Assembly: GCA_900319345.1 (NCBI GenBank)
Contig: ONNZ01000001.1
Coordinates: 2,739-66,738 of the forward strand
Length of the DNA stretch: 64,000 nucleotides
Direction of reading: 5' to 3'
DNA from: an uncultured Eubacteriales bacterium
Lineage (GTDB): Bacteria > Bacillota > Clostridia > Christensenellales > CAG-138
Under the pieces are notes generated by a model. It was not told the origin of the DNA and did not search any database. It saw nothing but the letters and a program-made list of their open reading frames with translations. Shown one piece after another: positions 32,708 through 60,023 of this stretch. The translations under genes and the position numbers were made by a program. The stretch's first letter is position 1. Each line of letters opens with the position of its first letter.

Positions 32708-32814
32708 TCTTGTCCCCCATTGATGAAAAATATCCTTCGCTGTTCCGCACTTCACATTCAGCCTTATATTTGGAAGCGATGCAGCGCTTGGATCGAAGCA
32801 ACTGATCCATGATC

Positions 32815-32854
32815 GTAAAAAGAAGAATAGGGAGGAAAGCCATCCCTTCCTCCC
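32815..32854 (-). terminator. intra-operon stem-loop/attenuator between the binding-protein and ATPase genes
   Basis: On the minus strand: GGGAGGAA...TTCCTCCC (8-bp arms), followed by TATTCTTCTTTTT. It sits in the 164-nt gap after the binding-protein stop. Confidence 0.5.
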
Positions 32855-32871
32855 CTTTGGCTCAGATAGGA

Positions 32872-33909: not shown

Positions 33910-33935
33910 AATGATTATTCCTTCCCATTCGTTGT

Positions 33936-33980
33936 GTTCAATAACAAAAATAATATACGCAATTATTGAACGATTGTCAA
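33936..33980 (-). promoter_or_regulatory. consensus promoter of the ABC operon with an overlapping 9-bp inverted repeat (candidate operator)
   Basis: On the minus strand: TTGACA (33980-33975), 17 nt spacer, TATATT (33957-33952). The inverted-repeat arms GTTCAATAA / TTATTGAAC (33971-33963 and 33944-33936) lie in the spacer and just downstream of the -10 box. Confidence 0.6.
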
Positions 33981-34004
33981 GGGAAATTCAGAATATATGT
34001 GATA

Positions 34005-34041
34005 GCGTCAAAGCAATAATACACAATCATTGCTTTGACGC
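34005..34041 (-). terminator. stem-loop downstream of the LicC-like gene
   Basis: gcgtcaaagcaat / attgctttgacgc form 13-bp arms with an 11-nt loop. The T-tract is weak. Confidence 0.45.
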
Positions 34042-34198
34042 CTGTTATTAGCTCATGTCATGCTTGGCAAATCTGTCGACCCAACCTTTACATAAAAGCA
34101 CTGTGGGCTGTTTTGAATACGAAGCGCCCTGCATGTTCAACGCGACACTATTTGATTTACTATTATGAACACATGGTTATGTTTTGTGAAACGACTGG

Positions 34199-35098
34199 TT
34201 ATACATCATATGTCTTGTCAACGGCTTTCAATTCGTTGAATGTATCAATTTCAATGATGTCTTCAGCAAAACATTCCCGAATCTCAACTTGATAATGTTC
34301 TTTCTTATATACGAGTGGAACCTGCTCCCAGTACCTTTCTCTTCCTCCCGGGCTTTGGAACACGTCCTGTATATCCTGACTCAATCGCTGACCATCCGCC
34401 GTATTCCAATAGCTGATACCGATCAGCTGCCAAATATCGTTTCCTTCGCCTCCAACCTTTTCCTCCACAATAGTGCCATCTTTCACGCGCACGCACCAAT
34501 CATCTGTTCTTTGTTTCTTTATTCCGAGAAAATTTGAAGAATAATGATATTTCTTTATGATCGTCGGGTTGGAAATCAATAGATCAGCTTCAAATACATA
34601 TGCGTTTGAAAGCATATACCTGGTTACCAACGCCGAACTGATGTTGTTGGCTTCATTGTAGATTGGATTCTCTAGAAACTTGATCATAGGGTACTTATAA
34701 AGAAGCTGATCAAACAGTTCTCCCAAGTAGCCACGGACAATGTATATTTCATCGATCCCCGCCTGTAAACAAGCATCTATAAGACGGTCGATAATGCGAA
34801 TGCCATGTACGCGAACAAGCGGCTTTGGTGTATTGAATGTGATCGGCACAAGACGTGTACCAAAACCAGCTGCAACAAAGATAGCTCGCTTTACACGATA
34901 CGGTTCTAGAGCATTTAGTCCGGCATGAGTGATGGCTCCATCCACTACAAAACCGGCTTCCGTTAATTCCTTCATGACACGGTTGATCGTGCCGAGACTA
35001 TGTCCCGTCTGTTTTTCCAAATCTCGCTGTGTCAATGCTTTTGGATTGCTTGCCATGATTTGTAGCACATCGAATTGTTTTCTGGTTAGATTCATCAT
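34199..35098 (-). CDS. winged-helix DNA-binding domain fused to a LicC-like nucleotidyl(cytidylyl)transferase
   Basis: 299 aa. Residues 1-65 (LTRKQFDVLQIMASNPKALTQRDLEKQTGHSLGTINRVMKELTEAGFV) form a MarR/wHTH-like domain. The remainder (AIFVAAGFGTRLVPITFNTPKPLVRV...IIEIDTFNELKAVD) is collinear with pneumococcal LicC as I remember it. Confidence 0.8.
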   Translation of the reverse strand: MMNLTRKQFDVLQIMASNPKALTQRDLEKQTGHSLGTINRVMKELTEAGFVVDGAITHAGLNALEPYRVKRAIFVAAGFGTRLVPITFNTPKPLVRVHGIRIIDRLIDACLQAGIDEIYIVRGYLGELFDQLLYKYPMIKFLENPIYNEANNISSALVTRYMLSNAYVFEADLLISNPTIIKKYHYSSNFLGIKKQRTDDWCVRVKDGTIVEEKVGGEGNDIWQLIGISYWNTADGQRLSQDIQDVFQSPGGRERYWEQVPLVYKKEHYQVEIRECFAEDIIEIDTFNELKAVDKTYDV

Positions 35099-35222
35099 TT
35101 TCCCTCAATGGTTTTATCTATGGACAATTAGCTTTCTCGAATTCGTTTTATCTCAACAATAGTCAGAAAAGCAAAAACACCTTTGCGTCCCTTAACTATT
35201 TAAGCTTGCCCCCCGCTGGAGC

Positions 35223-36104
35223 TTAGCATTCAGTTTGCAGTTGTAAATACCGCCTCCAGGGCATCTTTGCGTCAAAAGCTACGATCTCATGCTCCGAAGC
35301 CCCTTTTATGGGGGTTCGCCAATCGCCGTAAACCCTTGTCAGCACTTCGTCGTATGCAGCAGGGCAATTGATGGTCGTATTCTCAAAAGGCATCTCAACA
35401 CAATTCTCAAACCATTCCGTGTCCCACATAGCATTTGCACCATGGCACTTTACCGATGATTCTCCAACCACATTTGTCCTGGTATCTCCCCAGGCACAAG
35501 CATGAAGGTACTCTTCTTTAAGCTTTACGATGTCGAAATCTTCCCCCATCGTCTCATAATACTTCAGGAAAGAAGGTATATATTTACTATATGCGGCGTT
35601 TCTTTTGCCGGTTCTCCTCTCATACTGATATGCATCATGGCCTCGGATCACTTCCCACAGCCACAATACCTTCTCTTTCTGTTTTTGCCTCTCCTCAATT
35701 GACTCAGGCACATAGAAAAGAGGGAAAATATCGATAAATACCCCACGATCATACTCAGGGCCAATATTCTCCTGTTCCCACCTTGTAAATCCGGTCGTAT
35801 CGCTCCTTCTCAACCTACATGTGCCTGGCAATGCTTCCGCATCAGTATAAATGCATTGAAAAAAATAAGGATATTCGCATTCTCTCGGTGCAACTTCCAT
35901 CAGCTTTTGATAGTCAGGCCATAATAAAGCAAGATCAATATCATCGTCCCAGGGAATAAACCCTTTGTGTCGAACCGCTCCTAACAGTGTGCCTGCATCA
36001 GCATAGTACATTATATTATACTTTTTACAAACAGATATGAATTTTTCAAGAAGATCAAGCTCTACTTTCTGTATTTCTTGAAGATACGCCTCGCTCATAT
36101 TCAC
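35223..36104 (-). CDS. LicD-family phosphotransferase (paralog 1)
   Basis: 293 aa. LLGAVRHKGFIPWDDDIDLAL is the LicD signature. Confidence 0.88.
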   Translation of the reverse strand: MNMSEAYLQEIQKVELDLLEKFISVCKKYNIMYYADAGTLLGAVRHKGFIPWDDDIDLALLWPDYQKLMEVAPRECEYPYFFQCIYTDAEALPGTCRLRRSDTTGFTRWEQENIGPEYDRGVFIDIFPLFYVPESIEERQKQKEKVLWLWEVIRGHDAYQYERRTGKRNAAYSKYIPSFLKYYETMGEDFDIVKLKEEYLHACAWGDTRTNVVGESSVKCHGANAMWDTEWFENCVEMPFENTTINCPAAYDEVLTRVYGDWRTPIKGASEHEIVAFDAKMPWRRYLQLQTEC

Positions 36105-36350: not shown

Positions 36351-36665
36351 TCATCGCGAGAGAATATACGGATCTGACTGATATTTCAGCTGCATATCCT
36401 TAAAGCAGTTTTGCTCCGGCTTATGAAGATACTCGTATACGTCAGCGGCATCCGATACGGTAAACCGGCGAAGGCGTAAGCGTTCCGTTTCAATAGCAGC
36501 TTGTTCTCTGACTATCTTTTCAAAACGCTGATATGTCTTTCCGTCTCTGACCACTTCTTCAAGCCACATCGAAGCAGGCCTGCACCACAACCCGCCATCA
36601 CCGTAAAGGGCCTTATATACAACCATCGGTTCCTCAGTTTCCGAATGCTTAGAGATGCCGATCAC
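36351..36665 (-). pseudogene. gene fragment: 5'-truncated DUF1653 domain joined to the first ~30 residues of a RimJ/GNAT-type acetyltransferase
   Basis: SKHSETEEPMVVYKALYGDGGLWCRPASMW is the DUF1653 core lacking its N-terminus. ETERLRLRRFTVSDAADVYEY is a GNAT N-terminal motif, and then the frame ends. Confidence 0.55.
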
Positions 36666-37553
36666 TTCATACTCATTCCCCTTGAAATGACGATACCTAC
36701 CGGGAAGGATAGTTCTGATTGCTTCTTCGTAAGGATCATGTCCCCGGCATACCGTTCATTTTTCAGGATGCCCTGCACCGTGGTTTCCGTCCATTTGCAA
36801 TTTCTGGGGGAAGGGATATCCAGCGCGTTCAGTTTAACCACAATCGCCGGAAGCGGAGTGCCTTCCCGGTAAAGGTTGAAGATCGACCGGACGATTTCGC
36901 CTTCATTGGGCTCGATCACTGCCTCGCCCTGCTCGTTAAGCCGGTAGCCGTAAAGAGCTGACCAGCGGCTCTGGCCCATCTCATATCGTTTGCGGATACC
37001 CCATTTCAGGTTCTCCGAAATGTTCCGGCTTTCTTCCTGCGCAAAAGCCGAAAGGATGGTCAGTAGCATTTCACCTGAAGCCGTTGCCGTGTCGATCTGC
37101 TCTTTCTCGAAGTAAACATTGACTCCGATCTTCTTCAAATCATCTACGCACTTCAGGCAGTCAAGTGTATTCCGGGCGAACCGGCTGATGCTCTTTGTGA
37201 TGATTGTATCGAGTTTTCCATCCTGGGCGTCCTGAAGCATACGCCGGAACTCTTTTCTCTTTTTCATCGAAGTTCCCGTGATACCCTCGTCCGCGTAGAT
37301 ACCCGCCAGCTTCCAGCCGGGTGTTCTTTCAATTTTCTGCCTGAAGCCTATCATCTGAGGTTCGTCAGTTCTGTCCCAATTATCGACGGTCTGCGGTGAT
37401 GGTACCGGCATAGACGACATAGAATTTATCTCTATTTAATCCAAATACATCAAACAGTGTGTTCTTCTCTCTCTCAACTGGCACAGTCTTCTCAGTATCA
37501 ATCCAATTCCTGACTACATGGACCTTTGCCTTAATGACTGTAACCTTTGGCAT
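36662..37553 (-). mobile_element. degenerate large serine recombinase gene (frameshifted near the catalytic-Ser motif, C-terminal ~half deleted): remnant of an integrative element
   Basis: Track ORF 36662..37420 carries the resolvase-domain blocks GIYADEGITGTSMKKRKEFRRML, ITKSISRFARNT, MLLTILSAFAQEESRNISEN and the start of the recombinase domain. A separate frame from ATG 37553 (MPKVTVIKAK...KFYVVYAGTITADRR*) looks like the original N-terminus. No intact R-V-S motif is present. Confidence 0.7.
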
Positions 37554-40867: not shown

Positions 40868-41986
40868 TTGATTATGCAAAAACGGGCCCTTTGCCTGCTG
40901 CTTTGTCTGCTGTTCGTTTTCAGCGCGGCAGCATGTGGGAAAGACACGAACGGTGAAGTCGCAACGGCTGCACAGCCGATCGAACATACAGCAACAGCTA
41001 TCGAGACGGCAGTAACGACCACAGAGCCTACGACCATGGCGATCGTAGTGGGTACGCCCGCGCCTACGCCCACGCCCTCGCCCACGCCCACGCCTTCGCC
41101 GACCCCTACCCCTTCCCCCACGCCAGAAGCGACCCGGGAGCCGATCCCTGGGGATGTGACCACAATATTCCCCACTTATGACACCGGGACCGATGCAGAG
41201 TACAGCTATCAGTCCGAGGAGCTGCGCATCGCCATCGACAAGATCGAGGACGAGGATCTGCACCAGGTCTACTATGTGGCGGATATCTGGATCCGAAACA
41301 TCAGCGCCTTCCGCACCGGATTTGGCAACGGAGCGTATGACCACCGCACAGAGGATGCGGAGGACTTTGCGACGCGGGAGCATGCCGTACTGGGCGTCAA
41401 TGGGTCCTACAACAACGGCGTTCTGTTCCACAACGGCGAACTGGTACGCAAGACCGTGGATTCCAGTTTGGGAACAATGGTTCTATATAATGATGGCACC
41501 ATGAAAACTTTTAACACTGTTAAGGATGGATTCAATCTCAACAAAGAAATGAAAAAGGGAATCCGTCACATTTGGCAATTCGGCCCAGTATTGGTACAAA
41601 ATGGAAAAAACGTTTTGAAGGCCAGGAATATGATTCGTCATCCCCGCATCATGTTGGGATACTATGAGCCGGGTCATTACGTGGTGGTGACGGTGGACGG
41701 CCGGACTAAAAAGGCCATCGGCATGACGGAAGATGAACAGGCGGAGCTCATGCTCTCCCTGGGCTGCCAGGAGGCCATGAACCTGGACGGCGGCACCAGT
41801 GCCGTGATGGTCTTCATGGGTCAAATCATCAGCTCTCCCTCCAACATGGGCACCGGCCGAGCTGAAGGCGGGCGGGAGCTTTTGGATATGGTGCTTTTCG
41901 GCGAATATGACGCTGACGGCAATGCACCGGACCTGTCGGATATCCCTGCTGAAAAGTACTTCATGATGGATAAGGACGCCAACTGA
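40868..41986 (+). CDS. lipoprotein with phosphodiester glycosidase (NAGPA-like, DUF2233) domain
   Basis: Lipobox LFVFSAAAC, a Pro/Thr linker, then HAVLGVNGSY...WQFGPVLVQNG...RIMLGYYEPGHYVVVTVDGR...EAMNLDGGTSAVM. Confidence 0.75.
   Translation: MIMQKRALCLLLCLLFVFSAAACGKDTNGEVATAAQPIEHTATAIETAVTTTEPTTMAIVVGTPAPTPTPSPTPTPSPTPTPSPTPEATREPIPGDVTTIFPTYDTGTDAEYSYQSEELRIAIDKIEDEDLHQVYYVADIWIRNISAFRTGFGNGAYDHRTEDAEDFATREHAVLGVNGSYNNGVLFHNGELVRKTVDSSLGTMVLYNDGTMKTFNTVKDGFNLNKEMKKGIRHIWQFGPVLVQNGKNVLKARNMIRHPRIMLGYYEPGHYVVVTVDGRTKKAIGMTEDEQAELMLSLGCQEAMNLDGGTSAVMVFMGQIISSPSNMGTGRAEGGRELLDMVLFGEYDADGNAPDLSDIPAEKYFMMDKDAN
41054..41125. repeat. low-complexity PT(S) linker-coding repeat
   Basis: Encodes TPAPTPTPSPTPTPSPTPTPSPTP. 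Confidence 0.85.
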
Positions 41987-43164: not shown

Positions 43165-44625
43165 ATGAATAATAAGCAAATCGATGTGCGCATTACTGAC
43201 CTGTTGGCAATGCTGTTGAAGAGGTTGAAAGCGATCTTATGTTTTGCCTTGATCCTTGGGCTATTGGGAAGCATTTACGGAGCCGTCTCCTTCGTGAAAG
43301 CGCAGCCCCAGGCGAAGCAAGTCGATGCAGTAGACGCTGAGAAAAAGGTTAAGATAGCCGAGTTGCGTTTGGCCAGGGCTGAAAACGCACTGTCTTTTCG
43401 GGACCGTGTGGAAATCCCTAACGCTGAGCAAGATATAGAGCATCTTGAACATACGATCCAGCAGCTACGAGAATACATGAAGGACAGCATCTACTATGGC
43501 ATGAACCCATATCACCGTGGAGCCGCTCATCTCCGCTTTTCCGTAGAGGTCGACAATACCGGAGACCAAGCTGCAGCGAACGCAGTCGAGGATACACGAG
43601 CCGGGATCATTGTGGCCTATACTCAAATGTTTCCCTGTGATTCAACGACCCTCTCACAGATCCAAGAGATCATGGGCATTGAAAAGCAAGAGTATATCAA
43701 AGAGCTGATTACTGTCAGCGATGACGATGATCACCATGTCGTTGATATCTGTGTTCGGTATGATGACCTGCAAATAGCGGACCAGACCCTAACCTATCTA
43801 TATCAGACCATGACGGCACGAGCAAAGGAGAGCTTACCGAAGCATCAAGTCCAAGTGCTTTCCTCTTTTTCTGGCTATGAAGTGGATCACTCCATGATCA
43901 TAAGCCATGAGGCCAATGAAAAAGCGCTGCAAAACGCCGAATCTGCTTTGCAAAATGCTGAAAAAAAGTTTAAGTCCCTGACGAGCGAAGCTAATGATGA
44001 AAAGGCGGTGATATTGGAAGCTTCCCAAGCACTGCACTCTGCGCAGGAAGAGCTGCAGGATGCTCAAAACGATCACGTCAGTCATCGTATAAGCCGCCGT
44101 GCTATGTTGAAACGCGCCGTCAAGTTTAGTTTGTTCGGCGGGCTCGTTGGCCTTATGCTCGGCTGCTGCATCGTTTTGTTGAAAGGGCTGTTCAGCGGCG
44201 TCATTCAAAATCAAAGTGATATCACCAATCGCTATCCCTTCCCTCTGATAGGCGTCATGCCGTTTACTAAGAAAAGATGGTTCGATAAGCTGATTCGCAG
44301 ATTGGAAGGTGAATCGACCGTCGACAACGCTTCCATCATACAGGCCACCGTCCAAAGCCTGATTTCTCGTGTGGATGATCGTTCCGTCTGTCTGATTTCC
44401 TCCGGCAGCCGCAACTCCGCCGATTTGATCGCATCTTATACAGAAAACAGGGTCCAAACCATTGGCAGTATCCTTGATAATGCGGAAGCCATCAGGAAAC
44501 TATCTGAGTTCACAGGCGTAGTACTTGTGGAAGAGCGTGGCAAATCTCGAATAGACTCCATCGACGCCGAGATACTGCGTGCAAAATCACTTGGAAAAGA
44601 TATCATCGGCATAGTATTGATATAG
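43165..44625 (+). CDS. Wzz-like polysaccharide co-polymerase fused to a degenerate (P-loop-less) BY-kinase-like C-terminal domain
   Basis: 486 aa. TM1 is AILCFALILGLLGSIYGAV. A long coiled-coil ectodomain follows, then TM2 FSLFGGLVGLMLGCCIVLL. The cytoplasmic tail FPLIGVMPF...VCLISSGSRNSADLIASY...GVVLVEERGKSRIDSIDAE...IIGIVLI follows the kinase layout. It lacks the GK[ST] Walker A, the DxD motif, Walker B and a Tyr cluster. Confidence 0.7.
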   Translation: MNNKQIDVRITDLLAMLLKRLKAILCFALILGLLGSIYGAVSFVKAQPQAKQVDAVDAEKKVKIAELRLARAENALSFRDRVEIPNAEQDIEHLEHTIQQLREYMKDSIYYGMNPYHRGAAHLRFSVEVDNTGDQAAANAVEDTRAGIIVAYTQMFPCDSTTLSQIQEIMGIEKQEYIKELITVSDDDDHHVVDICVRYDDLQIADQTLTYLYQTMTARAKESLPKHQVQVLSSFSGYEVDHSMIISHEANEKALQNAESALQNAEKKFKSLTSEANDEKAVILEASQALHSAQEELQDAQNDHVSHRISRRAMLKRAVKFSLFGGLVGLMLGCCIVLLKGLFSGVIQNQSDITNRYPFPLIGVMPFTKKRWFDKLIRRLEGESTVDNASIIQATVQSLISRVDDRSVCLISSGSRNSADLIASYTENRVQTIGSILDNAEAIRKLSEFTGVVLVEERGKSRIDSIDAEILRAKSLGKDIIGIVLI

Positions 44626-44656
44626 TCCCTGTCCCCCTTGCTGTTTAAATGAAAAA

Positions 44657-44706
44657 GGGCATTTCAAGACCATATACCGGTCATGAAATGCCCTGTTCTT
44701 TTTTCA
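44657..44706. terminator. bidirectional terminator between convergent units
   Basis: A long hairpin gggcatttcaagacc...ggtcatgaaatgccc, preceded by AAAAA and followed by TGTTCTTTTTTC. Confidence 0.75.
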
Positions 44707-44720
44707 GTTTTTTTGTGCGA

Positions 44721-45884
44721 TCAGGAACCGCTCTTGTACCTATCGCGTATAGCCTGTCGAATCTGCGTGCTGCTGGTGCTAAGCGTGTAGGGCAGGTAGA
44801 TGATGCGCACTTGCTTGTCTGCGAAAAAAGCTTCATACCGTTTGAATCTGTCTGTACCCTGATAGTCGGAGCCCACAAACAGGCGATCAAAATGAAGCTT
44901 CTCCCACGCCGTACTGTCTTCCACCTCTGCATCGACAACTTTATCCACATATTTGCAGGCGGCAACAATCTGCTTCCTTTCTGCAAGTGGAATAAACGTT
45001 TCCTTCCCCTTCCATTCCCCGCTGTCATGGACGCCTACAATCAGATAATCGCATTGCTTTTTTGCCCTTTGAAGCAGGTTCAAATGTCCCACATGAAATA
45101 GGTCAAATGTCCCGGAAAGATATCCGATAACAACTCTCTTCTCATTCATCGCCCTGCCGGATGCTTTTTTATACTGATAACTGTAGAGTCCATACTCGTG
45201 AGGATCGTGATTATATCGTTCAATTACCCCTTTAAATATCTCCTCGTACTGTGGTATGAACAGGCAATCCGAAGCCAGGATGTGCTCGACGATATCTTCC
45301 GCCAGGCCTTTTAGTAGATCCAGCTGATTGTGTCCACCATAAAAACTTGACCCTTTGAAAGAAGCTGGTGAAACATTCAAAATACGATTCTTTGTCCCGG
45401 AAGCTTCCAATTCAATGTTTACACTCTCAATGCATCTGCATACAGCAGCCTTCGAAGCGGCATATACAGCTGCCATTGGAGAGGATATGAAACCGGAGAT
45501 GGATCCCATGACGCCGCATAAAAAAATATCGTTGCTTTTGATCCTATCATAGAATAGCCGCAGGATACGCAACGTGGAAGTCGCGTTCACCGTCATCATG
45601 TTCTTGATCTCAGCCGTATGAAAGAATTCAAAGTCTGCTACCCTGCCAAATCCAGCCGTGATCATCAGCAGCTTTATTTCATCGTCCGCGGCAAAAGCCG
45701 TTATCAATTCTTCGTCCAGATCCAGTAAATCGCAATATTGGTAATTGAATTTGTCCTCCGGAAGAATGCCCACTTCAGGATGGCGAATGTCCAATATTTC
45801 CACTAAAAAACCGCGGTTTATAAGATTGTCTACAATAGCGAGTCCAACGCCGTTGCTGCCGCCAATAACAAGCGCCTTTTCCAT
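44721..45884 (-). CDS. bifunctional short-chain dehydrogenase/reductase (N) + TagD-type cytidylyltransferase (C)
   Basis: 387 aa. The N-domain has ALVIGGSNGVGLAI and YAASKAAV (SDR YxxxK). The C-domain has GTFDLFHVGHLNLLQRAK (HxGH) and YTLSTSSTQIR (RTxGISTT-like). Confidence 0.8.
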   Translation of the reverse strand: MEKALVIGGSNGVGLAIVDNLINRGFLVEILDIRHPEVGILPEDKFNYQYCDLLDLDEELITAFAADDEIKLLMITAGFGRVADFEFFHTAEIKNMMTVNATSTLRILRLFYDRIKSNDIFLCGVMGSISGFISSPMAAVYAASKAAVCRCIESVNIELEASGTKNRILNVSPASFKGSSFYGGHNQLDLLKGLAEDIVEHILASDCLFIPQYEEIFKGVIERYNHDPHEYGLYSYQYKKASGRAMNEKRVVIGYLSGTFDLFHVGHLNLLQRAKKQCDYLIVGVHDSGEWKGKETFIPLAERKQIVAACKYVDKVVDAEVEDSTAWEKLHFDRLFVGSDYQGTDRFKRYEAFFADKQVRIIYLPYTLSTSSTQIRQAIRDRYKSGS

Positions 45885-45925
45885 ATCGATCCCTCCAAAA
45901 ACCGTGTTTTGTTCTGATATGTATC

Positions 45926-46741
45926 TTAATCTGGGAATTTGATGGTCCTGATCGATAAATGTTTGATATCCTTTGCAGGAGGAGGCGTCATATAATCCCC
46001 GTATTTCAGCGTGAGGTACGTGTCATAATCCTTGACCACTCTTAGTTTCTTGCCCTCGAAATCAACATCGATATACTCATCGAAACAGCTGCTGGGCAGG
46101 CCGAAGATACATTCCTTTCTAAAATAAGGGAAAGTATAGTGGCGCATCAGCTTTGTTTTCTTCCGGTTTGTCCTTTTCGTCAATTTATCCTGCCACGTGA
46201 ACACCCACTCTTTTGGAATCTTATCAAGCAATGTATACCACGCGCGAAGAGCCGGCGACTTAGCATTCTTCTTTCCTGAAATCGAGTATTGACATTTTCG
46301 AATGCAATAAATAGCGGCATAATGTAGCCTGCGAGCAAGAAAGCCGTCCGGAACATTGTCGTATACAAAGATGTCAGTAAAGATGCCATCCTGCAATTTC
46401 AAATGTTCCTGACCTACCTGTATAAAACTCGTTCCCTTCATTTTGATCTTAGAATACCCCCAGGGATACTCTGGATCTGTTCTGTGTTCCTGCAGGAAGA
46501 ATCTATCATGATCAAGGTCTTTTTTGCAGGCCTCGAAAAATTTCTCATACTCGACTCGCGACATGGAGATATCAGCATCATCATCCCAAGGGATGAAACC
46601 GTGCTCTCGCACAGCACCGATCATGGTGCCGCCCTCCAGCGTATACTCGATCCCATTTTTCCGGCATACCCTATCGACTTCACAAACAAGCTCAAGGCAT
46701 ACCCCCTGCAGCTTTTTCAGTTCTTCCGGACTCAAGACCAT
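45926..46741 (-). CDS. LicD-family phosphotransferase (paralog 2)
   Basis: 271 aa from ATG 46741 (AAGGAGAG RBS). MIGAVREHGFIPWDDDADISM. Confidence 0.88.
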   Translation of the reverse strand: MVLSPEELKKLQGVCLELVCEVDRVCRKNGIEYTLEGGTMIGAVREHGFIPWDDDADISMSRVEYEKFFEACKKDLDHDRFFLQEHRTDPEYPWGYSKIKMKGTSFIQVGQEHLKLQDGIFTDIFVYDNVPDGFLARRLHYAAIYCIRKCQYSISGKKNAKSPALRAWYTLLDKIPKEWVFTWQDKLTKRTNRKKTKLMRHYTFPYFRKECIFGLPSSCFDEYIDVDFEGKKLRVVKDYDTYLTLKYGDYMTPPPAKDIKHLSIRTIKFPD

Positions 46742-46784
46742 CGTCAATCTCTCCTTGATATTTGTTTTTTGTTCTATACACGCA

Positions 46785-48062
46785 TCAGCTGATTTCCAGA
46801 TAGTTTCTATGATAATGCTCCTCAATCACCTTTACGATAGCCCTTGAGGTCTCTGTGCTGATATAATAATTTCCTTTTCCGCTTTCTACAGCCTTCGCAA
46901 AGGCTACGATCTCATATCGTATCCCTTCTCCATCCAGCTGGTAAAAATATCTTTTGTTCTCTGCCGGGTTCTCAAAGCGTACCTCAAAATAATCGGTCTT
47001 CCACCATGGGGCTGGGACATAGATATATCCTTTGGTCCCCGTTATGACCAGCTCGCCTTCCGCTTTGGCGACCTTTGCTATCTTCACGGAAGCTACGGCT
47101 TTGTCATAGAGAAAATCTACTTTTGTAAATCCGTCGTAGTTCAAATCCTTGTTGATCAGTTTGGTAACAATTGTTTTCGACTTATACCCTGACCCCAACA
47201 GTTGAAACACCGGCAGCATGGCAGTGGGGCCCCATGCACAGATGCTGTTCTGCTTTTTACTTAAGTCTGCCCCTTCTTCTCCTGCTCCGTCCACAAGGCT
47301 TGTACATACGGTATCCACGGAAACGATGTCTCCAATACGCCCGCTTTTGGCAACAACGAGCAGGCGCGAATAAGCTGTCGAATACGCGGTCTTGATACCG
47401 TCCTCTAAAATGAGGCCGTTTTTCTTTGCCAAGCCCGACAGTTCCTCAAATTGAGAGACTGTTTTTGCAATCGGTGATTCACAGATAACGTGTTTTCCCG
47501 CTTCCAGCGCTCGTTTCACATCCTCGTAATGTCTGTCAGGATGCGTCGCAATATACACTGCGTCCACATTCTCCATGATTTCATCGCATTCAACATACTC
47601 GACACCGTTCACATACTGTGTTTCTCGAATAAACTTGTTGCAAACGCTTCCATTGCCGACTGTCCCAATGCGCAGCTTCCGGTTTTTCGCTCTGATATCC
47701 GAGCTGGATATGCCCAACGTCCTTGGAAGATAAATGACCTTACAATACTCATTCAGATAATCGAATTTCCCCTCCCAGTCGGAGCCGATGGCAAAGATGT
47801 CCACATTATAGCGACGGATATCGTCGATTTTCTGTCCCTCATATTCTTCGACGATGATTTCGTCCGCCAATCCCGTCTCCTTAATGGCAGCGATACGTTC
47901 CATAAGGGATTGCTGATTGTTGATCTTCCCGCGAGTTTTATCGTAGTCGTCACTGGTTACTCCAACGATCAAATAGTCTCCAAGCGCTTTTGCTCGTTCC
48001 AGTAGTCTGATATGCCCATAGTGAAGCAAATCGTATGTCCCGTAGGTAATTACTTTTATCAT
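46785..48062 (-). CDS. bifunctional TagD-type glycerol-3-phosphate cytidylyltransferase (N) + Gfo/Idh/MocA oxidoreductase (C)
   Basis: 425 aa. The N-terminal 130 aa (MIKVITYGTYDLLHYGHIRLLERAKALGDYLIVGV...GSDWEGKFDYL...VIYLPRTLGISSSDIR) are collinear with B. subtilis TagD as I remember it. The C-domain LRIGTVGNGSV...AVYIATHPDRHYEDVKRALEAGKHVICESP is the Gfo/Idh/MocA Rossmann fold. Confidence 0.85.
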   Translation of the reverse strand: MIKVITYGTYDLLHYGHIRLLERAKALGDYLIVGVTSDDYDKTRGKINNQQSLMERIAAIKETGLADEIIVEEYEGQKIDDIRRYNVDIFAIGSDWEGKFDYLNEYCKVIYLPRTLGISSSDIRAKNRKLRIGTVGNGSVCNKFIRETQYVNGVEYVECDEIMENVDAVYIATHPDRHYEDVKRALEAGKHVICESPIAKTVSQFEELSGLAKKNGLILEDGIKTAYSTAYSRLLVVAKSGRIGDIVSVDTVCTSLVDGAGEEGADLSKKQNSICAWGPTAMLPVFQLLGSGYKSKTIVTKLINKDLNYDGFTKVDFLYDKAVASVKIAKVAKAEGELVITGTKGYIYVPAPWWKTDYFEVRFENPAENKRYFYQLDGEGIRYEIVAFAKAVESGKGNYYISTETSRAIVKVIEEHYHRNYLEIS

Positions 48063-48109
48063 GTTTTTCCTTCCTGAGCCTCTTATCTGCCCACAGACAA
48101 ATCTTCGTA

Positions 48110-49183
48110 CTATATTTTCCCTTTCACCTGCATGTCTTTTAATGCATTGATAAGAATGGTATTATCTTCTGGACACAAATGGCCGATATGCCCGACCCGA
48201 AAAACCTTGCTCTTCAAATCTCCGCCGTTTGGGCAAATCCAAATGCCATAATGATCCTTTAGTTCCGTAAAGATTTCAAAAGCATCTGCGTGCAAAGGAT
48301 GAACTGAGGTTACACCGTTTGCCGGAGATTCAGAGACGAATTCAAACGGAAATCCTTTAATTTTCTCTCTAAAATCCTTTGCCTGACTGGCAACGCGAGC
48401 GACCTCTCGATCTGCTCCACCTCCAGCGTCAATCTCGTTCAGCCGCGTGTTGATCTGCCGCAGGATACCGACCGCAGGCGTAAACGGTGTTTGTCCTCGT
48501 TCCATATTCTTTAAGGCGTCGGCCAAATTGAAATACATGGACTTAACTTTTTTACAATTCACTCGGTCTACAGCGCGTGGTGAAAGGATGATGATTGAAA
48601 TCCCAGGGGGGCACGCAAGTGCTTTCTGAGAGCCAGTAATCATGACATCCGCCCCGCAATGCGCCATATCAAATGGATCTGCAAGAAATGCTGAAACGCA
48701 GTCGCACACATAGAAGGCATGATTTTTGCGACAGAATTCCCCAATCATCTCTGAATCATAAAGAACGCCTGTAGAAGTCTCATCGATATTGACCAGTACC
48801 CCCGTGAATCCTCGTCCGTCATATTGATATAGGGCTTCTTTGGTGAGCTTTTGCCCCGGATTTAGACGAATCGCTTCATGGGGGATCTCATGTATTTCAC
48901 AAAGCTCGACAAAACGATGTCCGAAACTTCCTCCGTCCACGACCAATACCAAATCCTTCTCGGAGAAGCAATTCATGACGACTGCTTCCATAGAACCTGT
49001 GGAGGAATTCGTCATGAAGACTGCTTTTGATCCCTCTGGTGCTTTTGCAAACCGAAGTATGAGCTGTTCGTTCTCTTTCATGACCGCCGAGAACTCCGGC
49101 GTTCTGAAATAAGGCACCTGCTCCGCACCCACAGCGCATACTTCTTCGCTACACATGACAGGACCGACCGTGAAATTTAGCAT
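48110..49183 (-). CDS. class-V (AGT/SPT/PhnW-like) pyridoxal-phosphate aminotransferase
   Basis: 357 aa. FTVGPV...YFRTPEF..., and the PLP-lysine context [13 protein letters not shown]. Confidence 0.8.
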
Positions 49184-49250: not shown

Positions 49251-50486
49251 TCACACGCCCTCAAAGAATGTATCCGGATGCCGGGGATCGAAGATTTCAT
49301 TTGCCCACATTACGGTGACCAGGTTTTCCGTGTCGGAGAGATTGATGATATTGTGGGTGTATCCCGGCAGCATATGGACAGCCTGGATACGGTCGCCAGA
49401 GACCTCAAACTCGATGACTTCGTCCGTACCGATCTTGCGCTCCTGGATGAGGCCGTGACCGGCGACAACGATGAAGAACTCCCACTTGCTGTTGTGCCAG
49501 TGCTGTCCCTTCGTGATCCCAGGCTTAGAGATATTTACACTGAACTGACCGTGATCTGTGGTTTTCAGCAATTCCGTAAAGCTGCCGCGGGCGTCGCAGT
49601 TCATCTTTAGATCGAAGGCCACCTTGTCCTTGGGGAGATACGAAAGATACATGGAATATAGCTTCTTTTCAAAGCTGCCGTCAGGGATCGCGGGCATGAC
49701 CAGCGTCTGCGGCTGATCGTGGAACGTATGCAGCAGCTCTACGATGCGCCCGAGCGTGGCCTTGTGCGTGATCGGTGCATAGCAATAGCGTCCGTCCTCA
49801 CAGGGGCGCGGCGTCAGGCCGTCGTAGGGTATGCCGTCGACGACCTCCCCGGCCTTCGGATACTCCGCTCGATGGGGATGCCCCTCCATGGCGTCGTACA
49901 TCTCCTCGATCAGATCCTCCACGAACAGCATTTCAAGCTCCACGCTCGGATCGTTGACCGTGATGGGCAGATCGTTGGCGATGTTGTTGCAGAAGGTGCC
50001 GACCGCCGAATTGTAGTTCGGCCGTACCCACTTGCCCACAAGATTCGGAAAGCGATAGACGTACACCGTGGTGCCGGTCTCCTGGGCATAGCGGAAGAAC
50101 AGCTCCTCGCCATCCCGTTTAGAAAGACCGTATTCAGAGGTTCCGAACCGCCCCGCCAGCGTCGCCTGCAGACTGCTGCTGAGCATCACGGGGCAATTGT
50201 TGTTATGTTTTTTCAACGTATCCAGCAAAGTCGAAGCAAAGCCAAAGTTGCCCTCTTTGAATTCCTTCGGATCCTTGGGGCGATTGACACCGGCGAGGTT
50301 GAATACGAAATCGCAAACGGAGCAATAGGTGTCCAGCTCCTCCAGCGTGTTGTTCAGATCATACTCGTAGATAGTGTCGATATGTAAACTAGGCCGCGTC
50401 CGGTTCTTCCCGTCCCGGATGCACTTGAGATTCTCCACAAGGTTCCGACCGACGAAGCCTTTAGCGCCAGTAACGAGGATCTTCAT
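49251..50486 (-). CDS. capF: CapF/FnlB-type UDP-2-acetamido-2,6-dideoxy-hexulose epimerase/reductase (SDR domain + cupin domain)
   Basis: 411 aa from ATG 50486 (ATGA overlap with the capG stop). MKILVTGAKGFVGRNL...; C-terminal cupin GSFTELLK...KGQHWHNSKWEFFIVV. The track ORF carries a spurious N-terminal extension. Confidence 0.8.
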   Translation of the reverse strand: MKILVTGAKGFVGRNLVENLKCIRDGKNRTRPSLHIDTIYEYDLNNTLEELDTYCSVCDFVFNLAGVNRPKDPKEFKEGNFGFASTLLDTLKKHNNNCPVMLSSSLQATLAGRFGTSEYGLSKRDGEELFFRYAQETGTTVYVYRFPNLVGKWVRPNYNSAVGTFCNNIANDLPITVNDPSVELEMLFVEDLIEEMYDAMEGHPHRAEYPKAGEVVDGIPYDGLTPRPCEDGRYCYAPITHKATLGRIVELLHTFHDQPQTLVMPAIPDGSFEKKLYSMYLSYLPKDKVAFDLKMNCDARGSFTELLKTTDHGQFSVNISKPGITKGQHWHNSKWEFFIVVAGHGLIQERKIGTDEVIEFEVSGDRIQAVHMLPGYTHNIINLSDTENLVTVMWANEIFDPRHPDTFFEGV

Positions 50487-51658
50487 GCGTCTTTTCTCCA
50501 TACCATCTTGTTGACCACGCCAACATAACTCTGGATGATTTTCACGACCTTGTTGGATACGTTGACGTCCGTATAGTCCGGCACCGGGATCGCGCCGCCG
50601 TTCTTCTCGTTCCTGACCATCTCCACGGCAGTATCGACCGCCTGCAAAAGTCCCTTCGTGTCGATGCCGGACAGAATGAAGCAGCCCTTGTCCAGCGCCT
50701 CCGGGCGCTCCGTAGAGGTGCGGATGCACACCGCCGGGATCGGATGCCCGATCGACGTGAAGAAGCTGCTTTCCTCCGGCAGCGTGCCGCTGTCAGACAC
50801 CACACAGAATGCGTTCATCTGCAGACAGTTGTAGTCATGGAAGCCGAGGGGCTCATGTTGAATCACACGCTTGTCCAGTTGGAAGCCGGACGCTTCGAGC
50901 CGCTTGCGCGAGCGCGGATGGCAGGAATAGAGGATCGGCATATCATACTTCTCCGCCATCCTATTAATCGCCGTGAAGAGACTGGTGAAATTCTTCTCCG
51001 TGTCGATGTTTTCCTCCCGATGGGCGGAGAGCAGGATATACTTGCCCTTTTCCAGACCGAGACGTTGATGGATATCGGAGGCTTCGATCGCCGCCAAATT
51101 CTCCGTCAGCACCTCCGCCATGGGGCTCCCCGTCACATACGTCCTTTCCTTCGGCAGGCCGCAGTCAGCCAGATACCGCCGCGCATGCTCGGAATAGGCG
51201 AGATTGACGTCGCTGATGATATCCACGATCCGCCGGTTGGTCTCCTCCGGCAGGCACTCGTCCTTGCAGCGGTTTCCAGCTTCCATATGGAAGATAGGGA
51301 TGTGAAGACGCTTTGCACCGATAACGGACAGGCAGGAGTTGGTATCGCCCAGCACCAATACCGCATCCGGCTTCAGTTCGACCATAGCCTTGTAGCTGGC
51401 CGCGATGATGTTGCCCATGGTCTCCCCAAGATCCGCACCCACAGCATCCAGATACAGCTCCGGATCATCGAGGCCCAAATCCCGGAAAAAGATCCCATTC
51501 AAGGTAAAGTCGTAATTCTGACCGGTATGCACCAAGATCGTATCAAAGTATTTCCTGCATTTTTTTATTACAGCGGCAAGTCTAATGATTTCCGGGCGGG
51601 TACCGACGATGATCATCAGCTTGATCTTGCCGTTGTTTTTCCAGTTGCAATGCTCCAT
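50483..51658 (-). CDS. capG: non-hydrolysing UDP-N-acetylhexosamine 2-epimerase (CapG/FnlC type)
   Basis: 391 aa. LMIIVGTRPEIIRLAAVI, VLGDTNS, and the LVVSDSGTLPEES-like block VVSDSGTLPEES. Confidence 0.85.
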   Translation of the reverse strand: MEHCNWKNNGKIKLMIIVGTRPEIIRLAAVIKKCRKYFDTILVHTGQNYDFTLNGIFFRDLGLDDPELYLDAVGADLGETMGNIIAASYKAMVELKPDAVLVLGDTNSCLSVIGAKRLHIPIFHMEAGNRCKDECLPEETNRRIVDIISDVNLAYSEHARRYLADCGLPKERTYVTGSPMAEVLTENLAAIEASDIHQRLGLEKGKYILLSAHREENIDTEKNFTSLFTAINRMAEKYDMPILYSCHPRSRKRLEASGFQLDKRVIQHEPLGFHDYNCLQMNAFCVVSDSGTLPEESSFFTSIGHPIPAVCIRTSTERPEALDKGCFILSGIDTKGLLQAVDTAVEMVRNEKNGGAIPVPDYTDVNVSNKVVKIIQSYVGVVNKMVWRKDA

Positions 51659-57838: not shown

Positions 57839-58696
57839 CTATTCAGTTCTTCCGAACGAGTTATTCTCGATCGACCCATCCCGAACGTACATGCTGTAGT
57901 GATGTGTCGCCTTCCGCTCTTCCTCCGGCGGCAAAGCCATATAATCTCCATACAGTTTGGACAGAACCGCATCATACTCCTTTGGAACGGACAACAAATG
58001 ACCTTCGAACGGAAGTTCGGTGTTTTCGTCGAACAGCTCTCGATCATACTGGGTCAACCCATAGGTCCATGCCGGGACGCCAACGTATGTATCTTGATCG
58101 GATGTATTAGCCAGCAAAAATCTGTCTATCCGTCCATTGATTCTTTCAGGGAGCTTTTTTCCTTCCGCCAAATGTAGCAGAATGCTTGCAACAAAGGAAG
58201 CTGCTCTGACAAGACCATTTTTGCCAATCGCGCCCTTATTATACAGCATATATGTCGCATTCATCCTTCGAATACGGCGCACAAGCTTGCGTCCATGTTC
58301 CATATCGCTGCAATAGTTATCCAACGGATAGATATCTACGAACGCACCGATGTCAAAAATTGGTTCCTTCTGCTCCGTTTCATATCGATATCTCATATTG
58401 CAAAACCTTGGGATATAATACGGATAATGCTTCGTGTTCGCCCTGGTGCACAGCTTGAACCCATTCACGATCCCATCTCCCAGAATCATGTGGAGCGCAT
58501 CATAATCCTTGCGCGGCATGAAAATATCAACATCGTCATCCCAGGGAATGAACCCGTGATGTCGTACTGCACCGATCAATGTCCCATAAGCGAGAAAATA
58601 CCGCAGCCGGTTCTCCCTGCATATCCTGTCTATTTCCACAAGAGCAGACAAGTTCGCCTGCTGTATTTCCTGTAAAGAGAGTGGATCGGAAGTCAT
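57839..58696 (-). CDS. LicD-family phosphotransferase (paralog 3)
   Basis: LIGAVRHHGFIPWDDDVDIFM. I prefer ATG 58696 (MTSDPL), 4 nt after the upstream stop, over the track start 58726. Confidence 0.85.
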   Translation of the reverse strand: MTSDPLSLQEIQQANLSALVEIDRICRENRLRYFLAYGTLIGAVRHHGFIPWDDDVDIFMPRKDYDALHMILGDGIVNGFKLCTRANTKHYPYYIPRFCNMRYRYETEQKEPIFDIGAFVDIYPLDNYCSDMEHGRKLVRRIRRMNATYMLYNKGAIGKNGLVRAASFVASILLHLAEGKKLPERINGRIDRFLLANTSDQDTYVGVPAWTYGLTQYDRELFDENTELPFEGHLLSVPKEYDAVLSKLYGDYMALPPEEERKATHHYSMYVRDGSIENNSFGRTE

Positions 58697-58700
58697 ATGG

Positions 58701-60023
58701 TCATATCCCTTTCTGCTGTTTTTCAATATATGCCTGTCGTACGGGAATAGCCCCTTGCAGCGGCCGTGCTCCCTCGAATACGGTTTCGTTTCGTATGCTG
58801 TTTTCCCTCCCCTGGACCAACTCCGCCAGCATGAACGGCAGAAAGAGAAAGATCATAAAATCGAAAGAAGATGAGTAGTATGGATTCGTGCCGTTAGCGC
58901 CAAGAACACAAACATAGGCTACCAAAATAGCTGAACCAACCAGTCTATCGACCTGAGCTGCTTGTATGGATTCGACGAAGATGACGGCTAAAGAGAGGAA
59001 ATAGAAGAAAGCGCCGATCAATCCGCTTTGGAAAAGCATTTCATGATAGGACAATTCAAAGTTCCATGGTTCTTTCGTGCTTCTCGCAAAACCTGGGATC
59101 ACCGCACCAGCTCCGTTCCCAAAGAAGGGTTCCTTTTTGAACCATTCGATCAAGTACTTTGCCTGTACCAGACGCTCATTCTCCGTACCGTTTTGGTCGA
59201 TCGATGCAAAGGCATCTTTAAAGCGAGCTATCAGCCCGCTAATGGACAGCATGCCTGTTTTTTCAGCGAAGAGAATACCTGCCACCAGGACCAGGACGCC
59301 TATCACCAGAAGCTTCATCTGGTCTTCGATCCTTCTTGTATTGATAAAAAAGAGGGCGAATACGCCAAGGACCAGGCAAAGCCACAGTATCCTTCTTCCG
59401 CTCAGGACCATAGCAGCGGCACAGAGGACCGTCGTCCCGATAAGCGCCCTTTTGCTTACGATTGCATGGGTGCCTGATTCATTGATGAGCATGACCAGCA
59501 GTGGGAACAATAGGATCGTCATGGAAAGGTTGGTGGTAACGACATGAGAATAACCTTCATGGAACTGGAGTCGAGCCGTTGCATCCAGCTTTTCCAGAAA
59601 AGGAATGCTCGTTCCTAAAAATCCGCATGCGATAAAGGTCAAGTTATAGACCGCAATGAATAAGGTCGCGCAGAGTATCGCTTTGAACGTAGCTTCATAG
59701 GCCTCCTCTCTGCAGATGGACACCATCAATGCGAAAAAAAGAAGCACGTTAACCACATTGACCCGAAAGAAAGCATATATCCCGGCAGCCGGATTTCCAT
59801 ACAGGATGCCGAAAGCTATCGCCAGTGCTGAATACACCATCCACAATACGGTAAAGCATACCACCGGTTTCCAAAGGGTGATCCCCCTTCTCGTCACCAG
59901 ATTCGCAGCGATCAAAAGGAGGCAGAGAAATATTTTCACAAATTGGAAGATCCTTGGGAAAGCCAAAATTGAGAACAATAGGATCCCCCATATGACATTC
60001 ACTGTCTTATTGCTGATCTTCAT
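58701..60023 (-). CDS. O-antigen-ligase/Wzy-like polytopic membrane protein (probable repeat-unit polymerase)
   Basis: 440 aa, at least 10 TM helices with one large loop. It occupies the position typical of wzy in Wzx/Wzy loci. Confidence 0.65.
   Translation of the reverse strand: MKISNKTVNVIWGILLFSILAFPRIFQFVKIFLCLLLIAANLVTRRGITLWKPVVCFTVLWMVYSALAIAFGILYGNPAAGIYAFFRVNVVNVLLFFALMVSICREEAYEATFKAILCATLFIAVYNLTFIACGFLGTSIPFLEKLDATARLQFHEGYSHVVTTNLSMTILLFPLLVMLINESGTHAIVSKRALIGTTVLCAAAMVLSGRRILWLCLVLGVFALFFINTRRIEDQMKLLVIGVLVLVAGILFAEKTGMLSISGLIARFKDAFASIDQNGTENERLVQAKYLIEWFKKEPFFGNGAGAVIPGFARSTKEPWNFELSYHEMLFQSGLIGAFFYFLSLAVIFVESIQAAQVDRLVGSAILVAYVCVLGANGTNPYYSSSFDFMIFLFLPFMLAELVQGRENSIRNETVFEGARPLQGAIPVRQAYIEKQQKGI

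Follow-up and report, generated by a model that had tools for sequence, protein, structure and literature searches.

An aminotransferase paired with a cytidylyltransferase-Gfo/Idh/MocA fusion in a clostridial polysaccharide operon: a candidate source of a CDP-activated amino-alcohol phosphate

We analyzed a 64,000-nucleotide stretch of DNA (the window) from an uncultured Eubacteriales bacterium (GenBank assembly GCA_900319345.1, contig ONNZ01000001.1). Four consecutive genes on its minus strand encode a class-V pyridoxal phosphate (PLP)-dependent aminotransferase (AT), a cytidylyltransferase (CT) fused to a Gfo/Idh/MocA-like domain (CT-Gfo), a LicD phosphotransferase, and a short-chain dehydrogenase/reductase (SDR) fused to a second cytidylyltransferase (SDR-CT). 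The initial annotation described them as one cassette for an unusual CDP-activated (amino)polyol phosphate. All four open reading frames were recovered, and Pfam confirmed each of their domains. In our overall model, about which our confidence is evenly balanced, two independent head-group modules close a Wzx/Wzy capsule operon. The first module consists of the AT and CT-Gfo. Its product is likely some transamination-derived amino-alcohol phosphate; the more specific assignment as CDP-serinol (CDP-2-amino-2-deoxyglycerol) is tentative. The Gfo-like domain of CT-Gfo has lost the catalytic lysine and the nucleotide-binding motif of its relatives and is probably redox-dead.

The AT gene (48110-49183, minus strand) encodes 357 residues with an Aminotran_5 domain (PF00266, E 7e-18) and the PLP lysine motif GSQK. 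From the PF00266 fold (65 bits) and the PLP lysine, the protein is assigned to the AGXT/PhnW-like group of class-V aminotransferases. It is near-identical to PDB entry 3F0H (E 6.5e-182), a structural-genomics entry from Eubacterium rectale titled only 'aminotransferase'. Other PDB matches are 2DR1, 6PK1 and 6PD1, a fusion of PntC with a 2-aminoethylphosphonate (AEP) transaminase (AEPT). The best NCBIfam matches, BhcA and PhnW/AepZ, all score far under their cut-offs (PhnW 146 against 360.8 bits). The CT-Gfo gene (46785-48062, minus strand) encodes 425 residues, with Pfam matches to CTP_transf_like at residues 5-125 (3.6e-21) and to GFO_IDH_MocA at residues 150-219 (1.6e-15). Residues 1-128 (47679-48062) form a TagD-like HxGH cytidylyltransferase domain of the PF01467 family (CT1), and residues 129-425 (46785-47678) form a degenerate Gfo/Idh/MocA-like domain that matches PF01408 in part (positions 47-116 of 120).

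The AT and CT-Gfo occur together far beyond the window. In a distribution scan that took one genome per species, and whose count is a lower bound, the CT-Gfo fusion was found in at least 583 species genomes. Carriers belong to Bacillota, Bacteroidota (Prevotella, Segatella copri, Muribaculaceae), Elusimicrobiota (Elusimicrobiaceae), Lentisphaerota (Lentisphaeria), Synergistota (Fretibacterium) and Negativicutes (Anaerovibrio). Cultured carriers include E. rectale ATCC 33656, S. copri, Laedolimicola intestinihominis CLA-AA-H132 and Anaerovibrio lipolyticus. Close homologues of CT-Gfo and of SDR-CT number in the thousands, and their source annotations are generic or contradictory ('choline-phosphate cytidylyltransferase', 'glycerol-3-phosphate cytidylyltransferase', 'Gfo/Idh/MocA family oxidoreductase'). 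We sampled the neighborhoods of 80 CT-Gfo loci, 72 of which had enough upstream sequence to be informative. An aminotransferase lies within the module in 68 of these 72 loci, across many phyla. It is a class-V enzyme directly upstream of CT-Gfo and in the same orientation in 48, and a class-V gene 1.8 kb away in one more. In about 19-20 loci, the class-V slot is filled by a HisC-like class I/II aminotransferase. This protein scores 228 bits against TIGR01141 (hisC), which is under the cut-off and well above its own CobD score, and the structures most related to it are without exception histidinol-phosphate aminotransferases. Three loci retain a shortened class-V gene of 258-324 residues beside the intact HisC-like gene, upstream of CT-Gfo (L051, 7004-7978; L074, 5807-6616; L078, 653-1429). 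They look like non-orthologous gene displacement caught midway.

Two unrelated PLP folds thus fill the same slot. In addition, a GNAT acetyltransferase adjoins the AT and CT-Gfo pair in ~10 loci, which fits an amine product. The smallest loci hold only a family 4 glycosyltransferase (GT4), LicD, the AT and CT-Gfo, in some cases with a further LicD. Since these minimal loci contain no sugar-nucleotide genes, the AT there does not serve an amino sugar. The inclusion of the aminotransferase in the initial annotation is well supported by these neighborhoods, and the aminated phospho-alcohol donor that it predicted is reasonable given the conserved pairing. The transferase downstream is LicD in 46 of the 80 loci and TagF-like in others. 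The pair also occurs outside capsule loci. In Segatella copri N016-9 (L083, 2960-13484), it lies among MsbA-like, LpxL-like, TagF-like, DUF6056, family 2 glycosyltransferase (GT2) and Kdo/WaaP-kinase-like genes; by gene content, this setting is one of lipopolysaccharide (LPS) core or lipid A and not of capsule.

The second line of evidence comes from the Gfo-like domain. Alignment with 4HAD, 3EVN, 3F4L, 3E9M and 2GLX shows that their CEKP motif is CESP in the window domain. The EKP lysine (K196) is present in none of the 80 members of the window clade, which have Ser, Ala, Thr or Pro in its place, versus all 121 members of a sister clade. In the GxGRIA motif, the third glycine (G138) is kept in 7 of the 80 and RIA is lost; the window protein reads GTVGNGS. 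The segment at residues 153-168 has 15 residues in the window protein versus ~37 in most members. This deletion of ~22 residues in the window subclade removes Rossmann β2-αB. An AlphaFold (AF2) model was calculated from an alignment containing both clades (pLDDT, the predicted local distance difference test, 87.9); an earlier run with a shallow alignment (pLDDT 64.6) was discarded. In the model, the two-domain Gfo/Idh/MocA fold is present, with a Rossmann domain and an α/β dimerization domain, and one Rossmann β-α unit is absent. The nearest folds are uncharacterized oxidoreductases (3E9M, 3EVN, 4HAD), dimeric dihydrodiol dehydrogenase and KijD10. The Foldseek neighbors 3E9M, 2O48, 4HAD and KijD10 have E-values of 1e-20 and TM-scores of 0.75-0.81 on the target, and KijD10 K102 mutants are among the PDB entries listed. 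On the nicotinamide side, E195, P197 and H178 are kept in the window clade. The absence of the D-x-x-x-Y/H dyad (P279/L283) was considered as a further sign of loss and dropped, as the sister clade also lacks the dyad. The evidence for degeneration is accordingly limited to the losses of the lysine and of GxGRIA.

The sister clade provides the contrast. It comprises 121 actinobacterial CT-Gfo proteins, every one of which keeps both GxGRIA and EKP. In all five contexts examined (within L088-L093), a gene for a large TagF-like polymerase comes immediately after CT-Gfo, and no aminotransferase is found; one of these contexts also has a TagGH-like transporter. Between the two clades, the CT domain differs at essentially no conserved position; its substrate is therefore the same, or isosteric, in both. 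Beside one sister-clade gene (L093, 1-5774) lie a thiamine pyrophosphate (TPP) enzyme, a 917-residue fusion of NTP_transf_3, iron-containing alcohol dehydrogenase (Fe-ADH) and LicD domains, and Stealth-family proteins. These genes probably make up a head-group system for a phosphonate or a hydroxyalkyl-phosph(on)ate.

Searched against the full library, the Gfo-like domain retrieved a wider set of architectures: CT-Gfo, Gfo-GDPD, CT-Gfo-GDPD, metallophosphoesterase-CT-Gfo with or without GDPD, and LicD-Gfo-GDPD. These wider relatives also keep GxGRIA and EKP without exception. Their fusions to glycerophosphodiesterase (GDPD), metallophosphoesterase, CT and LicD domains tie the family to glycerophosphodiester and CDP-alcohol chemistry, which favors a C3 substrate. 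The multidomain, EKP-intact relatives reach 1240 residues (representatives P0328, P0335, P0340, P0350, P0376, P0377 and P0444) and combine GDPD, calcineurin-like phosphoesterase, TagD-like CT and LicD domains. Judged by their architecture, they are an undescribed family of head-group 'factories'.

CT1 resembles TagD. It is 50% identical to Bacillus subtilis TagD (1COZ, E 8e-37), and its motifs LHYGH and RTLGISSS are invariant in the family. The initial annotation called it a bona fide TagD. That designation goes too far, because CT1 scores 118.1 bits against the equivalog model TIGR01518, under the cut-off of 165.4 (the second cytidylyltransferase, CT2, scores 70 bits). In the head-group region, TagD has PEKNWEQK, CT1 has an invariant EEYEGQK and CT2 has DAEVED. 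For TagD W74 in PEKxWxQK, we assume the role ascribed to it in the choline-phosphate cytidylyltransferase (CCT)/TagD literature. The acidic motif of CT1, with E75 in place of W74, was considered as evidence for an amine substrate and then dropped, since the aminotransferase-free sister clade has the identical motif.

In the pathway that we propose, substrates, step order, product and acceptor are built on the observed gene content, domain motifs, conservation, neighborhoods and catalytic-motif loss. The PLP aminotransferase would replace the keto group at C2 of a small keto-phosphate by an amine; this keto-phosphate would most likely be dihydroxyacetone phosphate (DHAP), either free or cytidylylated as CDP-dihydroxyacetone. 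The TagD-like domain would add the CMP moiety, and the module would yield a CDP-activated amino-alcohol phosphate, in this case CDP-serinol. DHAP or CDP-dihydroxyacetone is favored because of the substrates of HisC, PhnW and SerC, the TagD-sized CT and the relatives fused to glycerophosphodiesterase domains. HisC-, PhnW- and SerC-like aminotransferases act on a carbonyl one or two atoms from the phosphate or phosphonate; HisC works on a 2-oxopropyl-phosphate scaffold, of which DHAP is the 3-hydroxy analogue. Either order of steps has a precedent: CDP-glucitol and CDP-mannitol synthesis and KijD10-like chemistry if cytidylylation comes first, and AEPT/PntC if transamination does. The Gfo-like domain would be a relic of a ketoreductase with a non-redox role, and may bind the substrate or act as a scaffold. 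The ancestral fusion would have been a ketoreductase and cytidylyltransferase that made a CDP-polyol for teichoic-acid-type polymers, and the sister-clade enzyme would still reduce the same intermediate for TagF-type teichoic-acid polymerases. In the window clade, an aminotransferase would have captured the keto intermediate, after which the reductase lost its lysine and nucleotide site, so that the intermediate is transaminated instead of reduced. The second module, SDR-CT, would be a self-contained reductase and cytidylyltransferase that makes a CDP-polyol. The two LicD proteins of the operon would then decorate the repeat unit with both phospho-head groups, leaving the polysaccharide with a zwitterionic phospho-amino-alcohol and an anionic phospho-polyol as substituents.

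A different order of chemistry was proposed in the initial annotation, in which the TagD-like domain makes CDP-glycerol, the Gfo domain oxidizes its C2 with NAD+ to CDP-dihydroxyacetone, and the AT converts this to CDP-serinol. This route accounts for the need for all three activities. The CT and Gfo domains are fused with the AT adjacent, CT1 is 50% identical to TagD, the three nicotinamide-side residues are kept, and a Gfo/Idh/MocA dehydrogenase working with an aminotransferase is a known design (WbpB/WbpE, NtdC/NtdA). It is nevertheless rather unlikely, because it needs an active dehydrogenase and the motifs of the domain are lost: the EKP lysine throughout the window clade, GxGRIA with it, and β2-αB in the window subclade. 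Moreover, the clade in which the dehydrogenase is intact has no aminotransferase and feeds TagF polymerases, where CDP-dihydroxyacetone is implausible as an end product. The alternative raised by the same annotation, that a keto-phosphate such as DHAP is transaminated and cytidylylated, fits better. Transamination in place of reduction could also act on a larger keto sugar phosphate (ribulose-5-phosphate, xylulose-5-phosphate, fructose-6-phosphate or an erythrulose phosphate) and give a CDP-aminopentitol or CDP-aminohexitol. A dedicated reductase is easier to understand if the teichoic acids of the actinobacterial sister clade are of the ribitol, arabinitol or mannitol type, and the CT pocket differs from that of TagD. 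We still consider a larger substrate unlikely, given the small, TagD-like CT domain and the fusion of relatives to glycerophosphodiesterase domains. From what is known of the families, the carbonyl position acted on by HisC-, PhnW- and SerC-like enzymes fits DHAP and not ribulose-5-phosphate or fructose-6-phosphate. In favor of a larger substrate, the characterized CDP-alditol routes all begin from pentulose or hexulose phosphates (PMC10918830).

More ordinary outcomes were also weighed. The CT fusions might make plain CDP-glycerol and/or CDP-ribitol, with the AT serving an unrelated amino-sugar nucleotide. The locus does make L-FucNAc-type and rhamnose precursors, and CDP-glycerol is a common donor for TagF-like and LicD transferases. 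However, sugar-nucleotide aminotransferases are DegT-type, not AGXT/PhnW-like or HisC-like; the AT stays with CT-Gfo across phyla and across capsular polysaccharide, LPS and minimal loci; and its slot shows non-orthologous displacement. This explanation seems to us very unlikely. A phosphonate route on the PntC/AEPT model, with the AT as AEP transaminase and the CT supplying LicD with CMP-2-aminoethylphosphonate, would agree with the PhnW/AepZ match, with the 6PD1 hit and with the presence of PF01467-type CTs in phosphonate clusters (PMC6697681). The AT, however, falls far short of the PhnW cut-off. The phosphoenolpyruvate (PEP) mutase (Ppm) motif EDKxxxxxNS was found nowhere in the window and in one of 83 related loci, and the operon has no phosphonopyruvate decarboxylase. 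With no Ppm motif in the window, this route is effectively refuted.

Several observations weigh against transamination of DHAP to a CDP-serinol product. Four of the 72 informative CT-Gfo loci have no aminotransferase nearby. The identity of the product is read from enzyme families and genomic context, and the EEYEGQK pocket, being common to the aminotransferase-free sister clade, is no evidence for an amine substrate. Conversion of DHAP to glycerol-3-phosphate by the ancestral reductase would be redundant with central metabolism, so the keto substrate might rather be the phosphate of a pentulose or hexulose, or the stereochemistry might differ (sn-glycerol-1-phosphate). The HisC/CobD family also includes decarboxylases, and the loci with a HisC-type enzyme may make another amine, for example ethanolamine phosphate. 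Finally, the Gfo-like domain has ~60 invariant residues, among them H178, H191, E195, K224, PAPWWKTDYFE and R382. Such conservation indicates that the domain clearly still does something specific, possibly catalysis.

The second module is encoded by SDR-CT (44721-45884, minus strand), which combines a classical SDR (residues 1-~240; adh_short, PF00106, residues 3-175) with a cytidylyltransferase resembling TagD and ethanolamine-phosphate cytidylyltransferase (ECT) (CT2, residues ~250-387; CTP_transf_like, PF01467, residues 256-377). The window protein carries the motifs GGSNGVG, GSISG and YAASK, and 120 homologues conserve GGSxGxG, S...YxxxK, FHVGH and LPYTxxTSST; by these motifs, the SDR part is a classical SDR. 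The initial annotation placed both cytidylyltransferases in the HxGH/TagD type. Both do belong to PF01467, but CT2 is nearer to ethanolamine-phosphate cytidylyltransferase (3ELB, 4e-22) than to TagD (1.6e-13). What separates SDR-CT from the first module, and replaces the single four-gene cassette with two modules, is its distribution. It occurs in only two of the 80 CT-Gfo loci and in L003, and is missing from the other 78, and in four further loci (L084-L087) it stands without the AT or CT-Gfo, mostly with a LicD not far away and adjoining it in two of them (L086 and L087). The LicD gene between the two modules (45926-46741, minus strand; PF04991, E 4e-39, 135 bits) encodes the acidic motif WDDDAD, and its orthologues, 65-75% identical, occupy the same position between CT-Gfo and SDR-CT in L003 and L065. 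The listed start of this LicD is TTG 46825. The ATG at 46741 is preceded by a ribosome-binding site (AAGGAGAG), and the protein most likely begins there, which would give 271 residues, like its homologues. A second LicD gene of the same operon lies at 57839-58726 (minus strand; PF04991, E 1e-38).

The four genes come last, at the 3' end, in a long Wzx/Wzy polysaccharide operon on the minus strand, which encodes, in the order of transcription, a PylC-like ATP-grasp protein, GT4, a protein of unknown function, GT2, Wzy, the second LicD, RmlABDC, Wzx and FnlABC-like proteins. The genes of the cassette are densely packed, with gaps of 40-47 nucleotides and with ribosome-binding sites. An intrinsic terminator (44652-44694, minus strand), with a hairpin at 44694-44656 and a U-run, follows them. 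It is bidirectional and lies between convergent genes; its hairpin has a folding energy of -26.8 kcal/mol (z = -7.7), and none of 200 shuffled sequences folds equally well. A promoter and terminator consensus scan within the cassette gave background level only, and Rfam and tRNA scans of the window returned no matches. The G+C content of the operon is 44-53%, and that of the adjoining DNA is 61-68%. In 2-kb windows, G+C is 61-68% from 1 to 28 kb and 58% from 28 to 30 kb, falls at ~29800-30300, and is 43-57% thereafter. The entire polysaccharide region looks horizontally acquired. Among the neighboring genes, the convergent one (43165-44625, plus strand) encodes a 486-residue protein with no Pfam match, a coiled-coil, Wzz-like look and a C-terminal domain lacking a P-loop; a 277-residue protein encoded at 60874-61707 (minus strand) also has no Pfam match. 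Upstream of the AT, the listed 492-residue open reading frame at 49251-50729 (minus strand) has a GTG start and overlaps the upstream epimerase gene. The FnlB/CapF-like protein that it encodes most likely starts near MKILVTGAKGF, at about residue 82.

Other head-group genes are found in the window, which has three LicD genes and three nucleotidyltransferases in total. The region 30348-36104 (minus strand) contains a LicD (35223-36104), a helix-turn-helix (HTH) protein with a LicC-like NTP_transferase (34199-35098) and an ATP-binding cassette (ABC) importer (30348-33909) made up of a solute-binding protein, an ATPase and a fused permease. The region resembles a decoration system of the scavenging type, similar to the lic operon, and a truncated serine recombinase lies beside it (36662-37420). 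The gene at 40868-41986 (plus strand), flanked by the capsule regulators (Wzz/CpsD/CpsB-like) and by an LCP gene, encodes a secreted protein that has a NAGPA 'phosphodiester glycosidase' domain and a linker rich in Pro and Thr. A predicted enzyme for cleaving phosphodiester-linked groups adjoins the locus that would install such groups. The PylC-like ATP-grasp ligase (62894-63895, minus strand) heads the operon, and PylC-like fragments or ATP-grasp genes lie next to SDR-CT in unrelated loci (L084, 8912-9151; L085, 2810-3091; L087). By analogy with the ATP-grasp amidoligase of Campylobacter jejuni, the amine may be put to an amide-linked use.

CDP-alcohol donors for LicD and TagF transferases are of a known kind; the aminating module is uncharacterized and common in gut and rumen bacteria. 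Our analysis defines it as a compact two-gene unit, an aminotransferase and a cytidylyltransferase fused to a fossil dehydrogenase, and the crystal structure of one AT member, 3F0H, has been available with its function never assigned. It is possible, and we propose it tentatively, that CDP-serinol is an unrecognized donor that arose from a teichoic-acid CDP-polyol synthase, and that phosphoserinol, in some cases N-acetylated, serves widely as a zwitterionic decoration. Such a decoration would span the capsules, LPS cores and wall polymers of hundreds of anaerobes from gut and rumen, Segatella copri and Agathobacter (Eubacterium) rectalis among them. Recognition of a bacterial surface by host lectins, antibodies, antimicrobial peptides and phages is governed by phosphodiester head groups, for example phosphocholine, phosphoethanolamine, AEP and glycerol phosphate, and the zwitterionic glycans of gut commensals are known immunomodulators. 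Phosphoserinol adds 153.02 Da and phosphoglycerol 154.00 Da, so earlier low-resolution analyses may have taken the former for glycerophosphate. Should the product be CDP-serinol, the module would provide a new activated donor and a new surface modification, and thousands of proteins with generic annotations would gain a function. The module would also be a clean example of pathway evolution in which reduction was swapped for transamination and the dead reductase domain was kept.

The initial annotation could not match the genes to a described pathway, and we found in the searched literature no description of CDP-serinol, of phosphoserinol on glycans, or of LicD with Gfo/Idh/MocA and CT or PF01467 with PF01408. 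The closest logic is that of the CDP-alditol synthases, which combine an IspD-type CT (PF01128) with extended-SDR or medium-chain (MDR) reductases, as that annotation had recognized for the transferases (PMC10918830). They include TarI/TarJ and Bcs1 for CDP-ribitol, Mnp1/Mnp2 for CDP-mannitol, AbpA/AbpB for CDP-arabinitol and C. jejuni HS5.18/HS5.17 for CDP-6-D-glucitol; for CDP-glucitol and CDP-mannitol, it is established that cytidylylation of a keto sugar phosphate comes first and that the resulting CDP-keto compound is then modified (PMC10918830). SDR-CT and the sister-clade CT-Gfo fit this reductase and cytidylyltransferase logic. In contrast, both fusions carry a PF01467 CT, their reductase parts come from the classical SDR and Gfo/Idh/MocA families, and in the first module a transaminase is proposed to take the place of the reductase. 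Within the PF01467 family, CT1 is like TagD/TarD in its HxGH fold, its HxGH and RTxGISTT motifs and the basic pair 44/46, and in supplying LicD- or TagF-type phosphotransferases; it differs in its fusion to the Gfo-like domain, its pairing with the AT, its sub-cut-off score and its EEYEGQK in place of PEKxWxQK.

For the proposed transamination, the AEP tailoring enzymes and C. jejuni Cj1437 are the nearest parallels. In AEP tailoring, exemplified by the Tde1415 AEPT-PntC fusion (PDB 6PD1/6PD2; Rice et al., 2019; PMC6697681), a class-V aminotransferase likewise makes a small amino-phosph(on)ate that is cytidylylated and then attached to cell-surface glycans by LicD-like transferases. The window has neither PEP mutase nor decarboxylase, which points to a C-O-P rather than a C-P product, and its CT is HxGH-type and not LicC-type. 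Cj1437 transaminates DHAP to (S)-serinol phosphate for capsule decoration, and the serinol phosphate is joined to glucuronate by ATP-grasp amide ligation and then dephosphorylated (PMC11800397, PMC13276843). Compared by reaction alone, it is the only characterized enzyme for our proposed first step; the C. jejuni serinol phosphate, however, is neither cytidylylated nor attached through a phosphodiester.

The transferases belong to a well-known group. Like LicD1/2, Mf1 and WchX, the LicD proteins of the window are of PF04991, a family that places phosphodiester head groups on glycans from CDP-alcohol donors (CDP-choline, CDP-ethanolamine, CDP-glycerol and CDP-2-glycerol); many related CT-Gfo loci differ in using a TagF-like transferase instead. 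In Streptococcus pneumoniae, Gtp1 is a reductase, Gtp2 a cytidylyltransferase and Gtp3 a glycerol-2-phosphotransferase. The gene order of this CDP-2-glycerol locus is wchX-gtp1-gtp2-gtp3. The Gfo-like domain, for its part, has among its closest characterized folds the NDP-sugar 3-ketoreductase KijD10, which also acts on a nucleotide-linked keto substrate. The essential catalytic K102 of KijD10 corresponds to a serine in the window domain, from which β2-αB is also absent.

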